Shown: piece after piece, positions 6,312 through 10,050 of the stretch
Layout of the letters: every line of letters begins with the position of its first letter
How positions within the stretch are numbered: position 1 is the stretch's first letter
Assembly: GCA_963692865.2 (NCBI GenBank)
Contig: OY843592.1
Location: 672,001-736,000, forward strand
From: a bacterium
GTDB lineage: Bacteria; UBA8248
Reading direction: 5' to 3'
Length of the DNA stretch: 64,000 nt
Notes under the pieces: generated by a model
Databases searched by the model: none
What the model was told of the DNA's origin: nothing
What the model saw: only the letters and a program-made list of their open reading frames with translations
Made by a program: the position numbers and the translations under genes

Positions 6312-6424
6312 AAGGCGTGTTTATTTCATCACGTAGCTGGTGTTCGGTAGGCAGGTGTCTGGTGATTGCTTCGATGAAAAAATATTGAGAGGCGTTAATT
6401 ATCGATTTAGTCGGCTTTTATAAA

Positions 6425-7000
6425 TCAAGCCGATGTTTTTGCATAATCCCATCCCGTAACAAACAATTTCACCTCGCCGGTTGATTCCTCATATTTATAG
6501 CGAGTTAACTTGGCGAGATCATCACCATAGACATGAATACCCACCACAGGCTCAGTTGAAGCACAACTTACGCGATGCGCATCTTTATCTTTCGTACAGC
6601 AGACGAAAACATCTCCGGGCCCGGCCAGGCGTTTGCCTAGAGGCGTGAGTTTTACGCGGGCGCCGCTCTCGCGGGGACCTTCACGCAAAAAACTCTCTTC
6701 GTTTTCCGTTCCCCGGTAAATGCCTATCACTCCCCAGGTGCCGTGATCATGAATCGGGGTGGTCTGACCCACATCCCATATACCGGCGCCAACAGAAAAG
6801 CTCTCATCCGGCTCGACATGAATCCGGTTGAGCGTAAAACCTTCTTTTTTCACTAACAGCTGATCGGCATTCAAGAGGTTCGGCTCATCCAAAATTGGCT
6901 CAAGGGCCGTCACAACATGAGCCGTCACTTCTTCTTCGGTACCGCCAGTCTGTACAATTTCACGTACTTGGTCGATAAAATCCTTCATCTTTTTAGACAT
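6425..7000 (-). CDS. cysteine/3-mercaptopropionate dioxygenase-like cupin
   Basis: TPIHDHGTWG, DAHRV and IHVYG motifs of thiol dioxygenases. Confidence 0.8.
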   Translation of the reverse strand: MSKKMKDFIDQVREIVQTGGTEEEVTAHVVTALEPILDEPNLLNADQLLVKKEGFTLNRIHVEPDESFSVGAGIWDVGQTTPIHDHGTWGVIGIYRGTENEESFLREGPRESGARVKLTPLGKRLAGPGDVFVCCTKDKDAHRVSCASTEPVVGIHVYGDDLAKLTRYKYEESTGEVKLFVTGWDYAKTSA

Positions 7001-7048: not shown

Positions 7049-7600
7049 CTACATTTTATGATTCATCTCATGGACCAAGAGAGCCAACTTCAAAGATACG
7101 CTGCTTGCGAATCCACCGAGCTCGCCCGAGCCCGCGGTGACTCGATGTCATGGTATTATAAGCGGAACGGGATTTCTATGAAGCGCCTGGCCGACGGCGC
7201 GTGAAGCATTTGGGTTTCCAATCTGATTCGCCACCCAGCCGTAGGAGCGCGTCTCGCCATAAGGAATTTTTTCCGTCTCCTTGAGCACCTTGGTCATAAA
7301 TGGCGTGAGAGAGGAGATATCTGTCTTCAACTTGAAATTTTTTCGGGCGCCTTCAAGATATTCTTCTATCTCTTTTGAAGCTCGACGACTCAACGGTGTT
7401 GATTGCTCCTTTGCATGATTCGCCGCGAGAAGTTTTTCCACTCCATTCAACATTCTTATTTCTGCAATGCCCTTATCCGATACAAACACGGAGAATTCCG
7501 CACGCACTTTCTGAAGCCACTCGGCTACATGATTTTCCAGCGATTCTCCATCTTGCCGGAACAACTCACCCTGTTGCCATCCATCTACCCGGCGCGCCAT
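7049..7600 (-). CDS. ogt: methylated-DNA--protein-cysteine methyltransferase, selenocysteine-containing (in-frame TGA 7148-7150)
   Basis: IPYGETRSY, ASRAVGQA, NPVPLIIP then TGA-CAT-CGA-GTC = U-H-R-V (canonical PCHRV), continuing GELGGF...KLALL.HE to TAG at 7049. Confidence 0.88.
7108..7144 (-). promoter_or_regulatory. SECIS-like stem-loop 3' of ogt UGA
   Basis: mRNA CGAGUCACCG-CGGGCUC-GGGC-GAGCUCG-GUGGAUUCG; G-led apical loop ~21 nt after the UGA. Confidence 0.7.
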
Positions 7601-7623
7601 CTCAAATTCTCCTGTTCATGCCG

Positions 7624-8820
7624 CTAAAACGCCGTGGCCACTCCTCTTACATAGGCCTGTCCCGTTCTTAAGCGCAAGATCTGATTCGTTCCATCCGAAT
7701 GCAAGAACGTGCTGGCATCACGAAGATATTTCTCCATGGGCGCATCGTGCATAATGCCTGCGCCACCGAATACCTCCATGCCCAGGCGCGCGCAATCAAA
7801 GGCGACCTCCGAAGCGAAAACTTTGCACTTCCATCCTTGCGTGAAATCATAGGGCTTTTGATGATCCACCGCCCAGGCGGTGCGCCAGATGTACGTGCGC
7901 GCAATGTCCAGATTCATCGCCATATCGGCGAGAATAGTTTCTATCGCCTGGTGTTGCCCGATGGGCTTGCCGCCCTGGACGCGTTCGCGGCTGTAGGCGA
8001 GCGCTTTCTCGAAAGCGGCGCGTCCGACACCCAAGGCCGTGGCGGCTGCTTCGGGTTTTCCCATCGCCAGCAGATTGCCTCTGATTTCGAACATATTCCC
8101 TTCGCCCAGGATAATGTGGTTCTCGGGGATCTCGACGTCTTCATAGAAAATTTCTGAATTCATCGAAAGTCGCTGGCCAATTTTTTCATGCACTTCGCCT
8201 ATCGATACGCCGGGTGTCTCTCTAGGCACCAGAAAGCCGGTCAAGCCTTCTCTCAAGCTTTTGCTGAGGTCGGTTCTCGCCGCCAAAACGTACAACGACG
8301 CGACAGGGCCATTGCTGACATAGCGCTTTTCCCCATTGATGATCCATTTGCCGCCCTCTTTCTCCGCGCGCGTATAAAGCGCAATGGAGGGATCGTCGTA
8401 ATATCCCTGATGGTCGGTTCCCGCTCCCTCTTCCGTCATGGAAATCGCAGCCAGGAATCTGGGGTCTTCACACAGGCGTTTTATCCAGGGATCTCTGACT
8501 TCAGGCTCTACCTTTTCGAATATATGGGACAGCTTCCATGTCTGATCCAGGTTCACCGCAAAACCCAGATCTCCCACGGCAAGCTCCTCCCCCGCCAGAC
8601 AACAAGAAAGCACGTCGGCATCCATTCCGCCATATTCTTTGGGATAGGGAAGCTGCCTTAAACCCAAAGCGCTTGCTTTTTCGGTCAAATCCCACGGCAT
8701 CCGCTCTTCCCAGTTCTGAATCCGGTCACGCTCGGGAGCCACCGGAGCCAGTTCTTCACCAGCAAATTTTCTGGCTATTGTCTGAATTTGTATTTGTTCT
8801 TCATTCAATGTGAATTCCAT
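7624..8820 (-). CDS. acyl-CoA dehydrogenase
   Basis: SMTEEGAGTD, INGEKRYVSNG, ERVQGGKPI, FGGAG...EKYLRDA, GTNQI; start MEFTL with RBS GGAGGAG. Confidence 0.92.
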   Translation of the reverse strand: MEFTLNEEQIQIQTIARKFAGEELAPVAPERDRIQNWEERMPWDLTEKASALGLRQLPYPKEYGGMDADVLSCCLAGEELAVGDLGFAVNLDQTWKLSHIFEKVEPEVRDPWIKRLCEDPRFLAAISMTEEGAGTDHQGYYDDPSIALYTRAEKEGGKWIINGEKRYVSNGPVASLYVLAARTDLSKSLREGLTGFLVPRETPGVSIGEVHEKIGQRLSMNSEIFYEDVEIPENHIILGEGNMFEIRGNLLAMGKPEAAATALGVGRAAFEKALAYSRERVQGGKPIGQHQAIETILADMAMNLDIARTYIWRTAWAVDHQKPYDFTQGWKCKVFASEVAFDCARLGMEVFGGAGIMHDAPMEKYLRDASTFLHSDGTNQILRLRTGQAYVRGVATAF

Positions 8821-8895
8821 GCACACTCCTCCCGTCAATCATCCCCTGAAAGCGAGGCAAATGATACGATTCTCTTTAAGGAAAACAAAAGCGCA

Positions 8896-9279
8896 TCATG
8901 AAGAACAAGACAATGCGCGATTGGCCGCAGCCATCTCCATGACGCCGGGCGGTCTGCCGACGCCTGCGACAAAAGCGGCATCCGCTCCCGCCATTTCTAG
9001 CTGAAGAACAGATTCGTTCAAATCTGCATTTGGTGATAGCGATATGCCTCGCCTCGAAGGCATGTCTGTTTTTGCGACCTCTCCCACCTTTTGAAAAACC
9101 TCGGGCACACGAAGAAACTCATCCAGGTCTTTTTTGCTTACAACGCCAACCAAGCGATTTTCATCAAAAACAGCCGCCCAAGGCGAGTTTATCCTGTTCA
9201 TGGCCGTCCAAGCTTCTCTGGCGTCCTCCTCCACCCCAACAATCGCTACCGCCTGCAAAAAACACTCCCGAACCTTCAT
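8896..9279 (-). CDS. CBS-domain protein
   Basis: MKVRE..., VFDENRLVGVVSKKDL CBS pattern. Confidence 0.7.
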   Translation of the reverse strand: MKVRECFLQAVAIVGVEEDAREAWTAMNRINSPWAAVFDENRLVGVVSKKDLDEFLRVPEVFQKVGEVAKTDMPSRRGISLSPNADLNESVLQLEMAGADAAFVAGVGRPPGVMEMAAANRALSCSS

Positions 9280-9977
9280 CGAGCGATTTTCTCGGCCACC
9301 GACAGAAAACCAAAGCGCGGCATTGCTTCAATTTTCAAAAACGTTGATTTCATCGCTTTTAGTCTTTCCGGTGGATGTTGGGCGATTTCACTGGCCAGAT
9401 CACATGTTACCCTCATCAGGTCTATTTTCGATGTGAGGCGATTCACCAATCCTAAGCGATATCCCTCTCGCGCATCAAATCTTCTGCCGGTGAGCACCAA
9501 ATCCTTTGCTGATGGAATAAAAATCTGCCGCGTCAGACGAACGGTGGCGTCTCCTCCAGGAAATACGCCCATCGCAGTCTCCGGATATCCCAAAACGGCG
9601 CCCTCCACCGCAACACGAATATCGCATGAGAGCATCAACACCATCCCCCACCCGAAAGCGGGCCCGTTTACCGCTGCTATGGTCGGGATGGGCAGTTCAC
9701 GAAGGGCCGTACTCCACCTCTCGCCCAACATCATGAAGCGTTTCGCTTGTTCTTTCGTATGGGTAGCGCTTTCCTTAAGGTCGCGTCCTGAAGAAAAAGA
9801 CGTTCCTGAGCCGATTACAATAAGGACTTTAATATCTGGTGTCCTTTTAATTTCATCCATCTCCCTGCACATGGCTTCCATCAATGGCGTGTTGAATGCG
9901 TTTCGCGTTTCCGGACGATTCACGGTGATGATCGCAACATGGGATTCGATATGTGTGATGATCAGGCCTTTATCCAT
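9276..9977 (-). CDS. enoyl-CoA hydratase/isomerase family protein
   Basis: NRPETRNA, FSSGRDLKE, AAVNGPAFGWG, PETAMGVFPG; start moved to MDKGL because the longer ORF start crosses a terminator. Confidence 0.88.
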   Translation of the reverse strand: MDKGLIITHIESHVAIITVNRPETRNAFNTPLMEAMCREMDEIKRTPDIKVLIVIGSGTSFSSGRDLKESATHTKEQAKRFMMLGERWSTALRELPIPTIAAVNGPAFGWGMVLMLSCDIRVAVEGAVLGYPETAMGVFPGGDATVRLTRQIFIPSAKDLVLTGRRFDAREGYRLGLVNRLTSKIDLMRVTCDLASEIAQHPPERLKAMKSTFLKIEAMPRFGFLSVAEKIAR

Positions 9978-9991
9978 GTTTCGCCACAATG

Positions 9992-10023
9992 AAAAAAAAA
10001 GCCCGTCCCCTGAGGGACAGGCT
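9992..10023 (-). terminator. rho-independent terminator between the two crotonase paralogs
   Basis: Minus strand AGCCTGTCCC-TCAG-GGGACGGGCT followed by a run of T. Confidence 0.7.
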
Positions 10024-10050
10024 CGATGTATCATGGAAATTGGAAAGTCT

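Follow-up and report, generated by a model that had tools for sequence, protein, structure and literature searches.

Does the in-frame TGA at positions 7148-7150 of this stretch end a gene of the Ogt/MGMT family of DNA alkyltransferases, or does it encode the very residue that accepts the alkyl group? The gene lies on the minus strand of a 64,000-nucleotide stretch of DNA, the whole of which was analysed and is here called the window (C1:672001-736000), in a genome of 4.15 Mb that is assembled in 8 contigs and is 97.4% complete, with an estimated contamination of 6.69%. Gene callers halting at the UGA would yield a truncated product of 150 residues. Our results make it highly probable, at about 0.93, that this is an intact Ogt/MGMT gene with selenocysteine (Sec) as the alkyl-accepting residue. 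The gene has the following parts.

7049..7600, minus strand: ogt/MGMT coding sequence, 183 codons plus TAG, read through one UGA (Sec151).
7148..7150, minus strand: UGA at the alkyl-accepting position of the P-C-H-R-V motif, in the same column as the Cys of homologues; predicted Sec.
7609..7613, minus strand: Shine-Dalgarno-like AGGAG, read from the sequence and putative in function, 8 nt upstream of the ATG.

The reading frame runs from an ATG at 7600-7598 to a TAG at 7051-7049, and its translation consists, in order, of ...HRNPVPLIIP, the TGA at 7148-7150, HRVTAGSGELGGFASSVSLKLALLVHEMNHKM and then the TAG. The DNA context of the in-frame TGA is CCA TGA CAT CGA GTC, which gives the motif P-U-H-R-V. 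An earlier reading of the letters alone (the sequence-only reading) had placed the TGA exactly at the Cys of PCHRV and had described the frame as open beyond it up to the TAG at 7049. Both statements were confirmed, and the match of the read-through protein to PF01035 (E 2.4e-29; 101.4 bits, cut-off 27; residues 100-178) has the TGA inside it. The read-through protein also matched TIGR00589, the ogt model (E 1.3e-28; 98.8 bits, cut-off 46.4) and, marginally, the N-terminal domain PF02870 (22.6 bits, cut-off 21; E 1.6e-4). Among solved structures, the best match of the 183-aa protein is OGT 4wxc (E 1.5e-22), which covers residues 75-178 across the UGA. In an alignment of 51 homologues, covering both Sec and Cys forms, the active site shows no variation at Y, R, N, U/C, H and R and almost none at an E. 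Their spacings of 14, 9, 8 and 27 fit human AGT, and the ranges of the structure matches set query residue 179 opposite residue 173 of chain 1eh6; we take the human counterparts to be Y114, R128, N137, H146, R147 and E172.

Two other identities were considered and rejected for the 183-aa protein. ATL proteins lack both the nucleophile of the motif and the N-terminal domain, whereas here there are a Sec codon at the motif and an N-terminal domain, and the ATL chain 3gva gave a far weaker match (E 4.3e-7) than the OGT chains. Ada proteins are bifunctional regulators and methyltransferases that carry an N-terminal Zn methyl-phosphotriester domain and an AraC-type HTH; identity as an Ada protein was rejected based on a score of 71 bits against the cut-off of 345 for NF011964 and on the length of only 183 residues. 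By comparison to Cys-type Ogt and Ada proteins (OGT 4wxc and the C-terminal domain of E. coli Ada, 1sfe), the protein belongs to the same two-domain family and shares the motif and the DNA-binding and catalytic residues, but in the Cys-type proteins the nucleophile is Cys, and its codon is not followed by a hairpin.

TGA is otherwise the commonest stop in the window, where it ends 31 of the 54 ORFs of at least 250 aa. A genome-wide reassignment of UGA is ruled out by this use and, TGA being an ordinary stop here, recoding at ogt must be local. The Sec machinery, which the sequence-only reading had named as a check on its proposal, was found in the genome in all its parts, tRNA-Sec, selA, selB and selD. 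Across the whole genome there are two tRNA-Sec loci scoring 76.7 bits each, with the anticodon UCA according to ARAGORN; selA scores 567 bits and is directly adjoined by selB (392 bits). The selD gene (335 bits; G000:C1:65915-66877, L013) has a single in-frame TGA of its own, and the selenophosphate synthetase of this genome is probably itself a selenoprotein. The two tRNA-Sec genes are located on different contigs, at G000:C1:1207504-1207596 and G000:C4:29719-29811 (L001 and L002), and an alignment of the 3 kb around each shows 367 differences in 3093 positions. Either the gene is genuinely duplicated or, with contamination put at 6.69%, one copy belongs to another, related strain within the assembly. 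Within the window, ARAGORN found no tRNA, and an Rfam scan of the whole window at gathering thresholds returned no match, including none to a SECIS model.

The sequence-only reading had further described a hairpin with a G-led loop after the TGA. This hairpin proved real, with a 7-bp stem and a GGGC loop, and it is conserved and co-varying in the family.

7117..7134, minus strand: bSECIS-type apical hairpin, 7-bp stem with loop GGGC, nt 17-34 from the U of the UGA.
7108..7144, minus strand: possible lower stem, nt 7-12 with nt 38-43, from the minimum free energy (MFE) structure of this sequence only.

The arms CGGGCUC (7134-7128) and GAGCUCG (7123-7117) enclose the loop GGGC (7127-7124). The lower stem is only partially conserved, being seen in many, not all, genus members. 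As a single sequence, the fold is unremarkable for a G+C-rich stretch (z -1.31 over 51 nt, where 23 of 200 shuffled versions folded equally well or better; z -0.45 over 91 nt); the significance of the hairpin comes from comparative data and not from the single-sequence fold. The family's 35 Sec forms comprise 31 distinct sequences, which are kin and not independent samples; in them, 217 of 217 cells of the stem form standard pairs. Compensatory changes were observed at two pairs (GC/CG/AU and CG/UA), with 13 cells changed on both sides. When the 3' arm was moved by 1-3 columns as a control, pairing was only 26-53%. Column shuffles reached the observed percentage paired, number of cells changed on both sides and covariation score in 0 of 500 cases; two further measures were indistinct from the shuffles, namely the pairs with double changes (222/500) and the further pair types (467/500). 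A subset of 24 sequences gave a result in agreement with that of the 35. At the level of the class, a group of six sequences builds its stem differently, as GGGUCCC/GGGACCU, displaced by about 1.5 nt and with a loop of GGG or GUG; in this stem 95% of cells are paired and, among these six, no covariation was found. A third stem, GGCCUCC/GGAGGCC with the loop GGC, is positioned at the same place in G025. The SECIS element of bacteria, of the E. coli fdhF type, is a hairpin that directly follows the UGA inside the coding region and has a G in its apical loop. The ogt hairpin is like it in position and in the apical-loop G and differs from it in sequence and stem.

A wider sample came from a motif scan of metagenomes, which returned at least 119 stretches. 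Among the 119 matches listed, 98 are Ogt sequences with the TGA and the conserved downstream peptide, 11 contain the upstream part only and 10 are unrelated; the Sec set was chosen by a motif that includes the TGA. Pooled with those of this phylum, at least 123 distinct Sec forms were available (89 metagenomic, among the matches listed, and 34 from the phylum). In this pooled set, with its metagenomic part again among the matches listed, 111 of 123 have an apical loop that opens at nt 24-25, and 122 of 123 have a G as first or second loop letter. The median MFE of nt 10-45 was -13.7 and -14.2 kcal/mol for the 123 Sec forms (among the matches listed) versus -10.6 kcal/mol for the Cys controls, of which only 21 passed the filter. 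The difference gave a Mann-Whitney p of 1.2e-6, or of 0.01 at a G+C content of at least 0.62, for sequences that are related to one another and with the metagenomic Sec forms taken among the matches listed. The controls came from 80 related loci of many phyla, not individually checked, and one of the two seed patterns held the Cys codon and was unable to pick up Sec forms.

The TGA is not peculiar to this genome. In a six-frame search, a single TGA was present in the best Ogt match of 32 of 41 relatives, comprising all 23 genus genomes, one of a second genus and eight from other families of the class. Phylum-wide, 43 of the 51 genomes available have a TGA in their best Ogt match, and in all 43 TGA-bearing loci that were read it occupies the P-x-HRV column. 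Of the remaining eight genomes, four have a Cys orthologue (G047, G048, G049 and G053), three have distant Cys forms as their only Ogt matches (G026, G024 and G056), and one, G042, which is 67% complete, has no Ogt match. Nine other aligned homologues have Cys at the TGA column, with a TGC or TGT codon read for eight of them, and a tenth Cys form, that of G048 (TGC), lies outside that alignment. Relatives therefore carry both TGA and TGC/TGT at the same column, which is the kind of Sec/Cys pairing that the sequence-only reading had suggested looking for. With respect to the base call itself, public DNA contigs covering ogt (X2, X3 and X12), from other runs, show none at 7148-7150 among the differences listed. 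The single RNA run, X23, covers 6410-6938, in the neighbour gene and outside ogt. Many further public runs that share small parts of the window are labelled as sponge, coral or marine metagenomes; these labels carry no weight as evidence on habitat.

Two orthologues are damaged and were excluded from the protein alignment and the tree. In G028 (L042), there are a one-base deletion in the G-run/loop of the hairpin and a stop 9 codons past the TGA, and in G048 (L058), a Cys form, ogt is split over two frames. These broken copies could be pseudogenes or homopolymer assembly errors.

The Cys orthologues show what becomes of the hairpin when the codon is TGC. In G053 there is one stem mismatch, and its sisters G050 and G052 have retained the TGA with a fully paired stem. 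G049 has a changed 3' arm, and with it a changed peptide, from SGELGG to SGALGG; no stem is left in G047 and G048. Both selA and tRNA-Sec scored above the cut-off in all five genomes tested (G047, G048, G049, G053 and G050). Loss of the Sec trait was rejected on these grounds as the cause of reversion to Cys; with selA and tRNA-Sec retained in the Cys genomes, the change was not forced in this way.

These comparisons bear on whether the UGA might be read as a residue other than Sec, either as Cys through a mis-charged tRNA-Sec or as Trp or Cys through near-cognate read-through, with a normal Cys-type Ogt or an inactive protein as the product. The existence of Cys orthologues in the same clade shows that Cys works at this site. 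Yet the genome has a complete Sec pathway, the position and G-rich loop of the hairpin are as expected for a SelB-binding element, and the hairpin decays once the codon is TGC; plain read-through, moreover, needs no hairpin. We consider decoding as another residue very unlikely.

A second question is whether the TGA is simply a true stop, so that the gene is a recent pseudogene or encodes only a truncated protein of 150 residues. The sequence after the TGA argues against this. Nei-Gojobori estimates, pooled over pairs of the 23 genus members, gave a dN/dS of 0.142 for 29 codons after the TGA and of 0.148 for 85 codons before it, and the two alternative frames downstream of the TGA contain 38 and 30 stops. 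The sequence-only reading had raised the possibility that relatives have a degraded sequence after the TGA; what we observed instead is purifying selection, equal on the two sides. Over the 11 codons of the hairpin, dS is 0.49, lower than elsewhere (0.74-0.79), which fits an extra constraint at the level of RNA. The read-through frame of ogt is kept in genomes down to 37% identity. Judged from selection, these data show the region downstream of the UGA to be translated. In favour of a true stop are the frequency of TGA among the stops of the window (31 of 54 long ORFs), the unremarkable single-sequence fold, the frameshift 9 codons past the TGA in G028 and the splitting of the G048 gene over two frames. 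Against it are the 32 codons after the TGA, which are open and under equal purifying selection down to the identity just given, and the fact that the truncated product would be without the active-site His, Arg and Glu. A true stop is extremely improbable in the light of these data.

The genome encodes a second alkyltransferase, an Ada-type protein of 366 aa with Cys at PCHRV (G000:C1:2645246-2645548; L035 1489-2589, minus strand), whose N-terminal part, judged from the sequence by eye, resembles a Zn methyl-acceptor and an AraC-type region. A long Cys-type paralogue is present in every genus member. These paralogues favour a reading, compatible with Sec insertion, in which the UGA is a selenium-dependent switch, giving the full enzyme with Se and, without Se, a truncated DNA-binding fragment that has its own role or none, with the Cys-type Ada taking over; but the fragment would stop short of HRV and Glu and its function is purely hypothetical, which leaves a switch exceedingly improbable.

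The neighbours of ogt on the same strand are as follows.

6425-7000, minus strand: 191-aa ORF, thiol dioxygenase of the cysteine/3-mercaptopropionate dioxygenase family, 48 nt downstream of ogt.
7624-8838, minus strand: acyl-CoA dehydrogenase, ending 23 nt upstream of the ogt start.
9276-10034, minus strand: 252-aa ORF, further upstream of ogt.

The dioxygenase ORF matched the PDB entries 6xb9 (E 3.1e-20) and 3uss/4tlf (E 8.4e-19), and its score with the Pfam model CDO_I was 16 bits, under the cut-off. Among 53 loci from the phylum and its relatives, many with flanks of only about 500 nt, 33 have it next to ogt, and these include the Cys revertant G053. A dioxygenase was found beside ogt in 0 of 119 metagenomic loci (among the matches listed) and 0 of 80 Cys loci, both with short flanks. 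A functional link between ogt and the thiol dioxygenase was rejected based on this distribution, which points to synteny of the lineage. The acyl-CoA dehydrogenase adjoins ogt in 26 of the 53 loci. No terminator-like sites were found on the minus strand between the dehydrogenase, ogt and the dioxygenase, and it is thus possible that the three genes may be co-transcribed. A sigma-70-like promoter match (10/12) is present inside ogt at 7155-7182 on the minus strand, just upstream of the TGA. This match is probably due to chance, two such matches having been found in the region versus a mean of 2.7 in shuffles.

The history of the Sec form was addressed with a maximum-likelihood tree of 51 C-terminal domains over 115 columns, with a midpoint root used for drawing only. 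The tree contains at least four changes between the Sec and Cys states, three of which are forced by well-supported branches, and G053 is nested among Sec forms with a support of 100/99. The alignment is short and unrooted, and its long outgroup branches tend to attract each other; its simplest reading is that the Sec form is old in the phylum and that several reversions to Cys would have followed later.

Sec-containing Ogt proteins have been catalogued as a kind since 2005, and the locus described here is a well-supported addition to them and no discovery. The first, CHY0809 of Carboxydothermus hydrogenoformans, was reported in 2005 and is called unique and recent in the passage that describes it (PMC1287953). 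Two Sec-Ogt sequences are given for the metagenomes of Olavius symbionts (PMC1976440), and the GOS data are stated to contain one Sec form versus 2,879 Cys homologues (PMC2398784). A 2022 review includes Sec-Ogt in its list of families (PMC9312934), and the relevant part of a 2026 review classes it as 'Predicted with high confidence' and not as 'Experimentally verified' (PMC13188914). Our search of the full-text literature returned no bench study of a natural Sec-Ogt, a provisional result given that most subscription journals are outside its coverage. The statement of the sequence-only reading that such proteins have been predicted computationally without biochemistry agrees with the relevant parts of these surveys and reviews; what can be added is the engineered human AGT C145U (Haruna et al. 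2014), which according to the passages on it protects E. coli lacking ada and ogt against MNNG (PMC4150793). In this variant, Sec was introduced at a suppressed UAG codon through an EF-Tu system, without a SECIS, and its Asn137 is described there as dispensable in the presence of Sec (PMC4150793). For the engineered AGT C145U, alkyl transfer to a selenolate is shown to be feasible in vivo (PMC4150793).

By its published description, CHY0809 resembles the protein described here in having Sec in place of the catalytic Cys, a stem-loop directly downstream of the UGA, and selA, selB, selD and tRNA-Sec in the organism. By the same description it is set apart as a single recent case in the 2005 paper, whereas the present protein belongs to another lineage in which Sec is near-universal (43 of 51 phylum genomes). 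AGT C145U, as described, is alike in having Sec at the alkyl-accepting position of AGT. It differs in being artificial and in the dispensability of Asn137, an Asn that, with the human numbering as we presume it, is present in 51 of 51 aligned homologues here.

We propose the following course of events for this protein. SelB with Sec-tRNA(Sec) would bind the hairpin, whose first base lies 17 nt from the U of UGA-151, and would place Sec at that codon. The ribosome would then go on through the last 32 codons, which encode the His-Arg-Val of the motif as well as the C-terminal helix that carries the conserved Glu. Full-length Ogt would bind DNA via the conserved helix-turn-helix with its Arg finger, with the O6-alkylguanine flipped out, and the selenolate would take the alkyl group from the O6-alkylguanine in one irreversible step, such that one Sec-protein is spent per repair. 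The separate Cys-type Ada of 366 aa encoded in the same genome would supply the classical adaptive response. Both the actual incorporation of Se and the DNA-repair activity of this Ogt are predicted here from sequence comparisons, and Sec would presumably act through its lower pKa and higher nucleophilicity.

In conclusion, Sec is costly and is inserted with low efficiency, and a suicide protein that uses one up for every repaired base poses a standing puzzle among selenoproteins. The retention of Sec throughout the phylum, the hundreds of metagenomic relatives and the rarity of reversion to Cys despite a path of one base show that Sec is selectively maintained and is no accident. One explanation, which we consider very unlikely, is that Sec is kept because Ogt gains abilities from it, either a removable Se-alkyl adduct that would allow turnover or action on lesions or under conditions beyond those of the Cys form. 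To this puzzle, the locus adds a small phylum in which the Sec form is close to fixed throughout, as well as very close Sec and Cys orthologues (G050 and G052 versus G053) and the decay of the SECIS in genomes that are Sec-competent. It also adds evidence for Sec-Ogt genes being common in environmental metagenomes.
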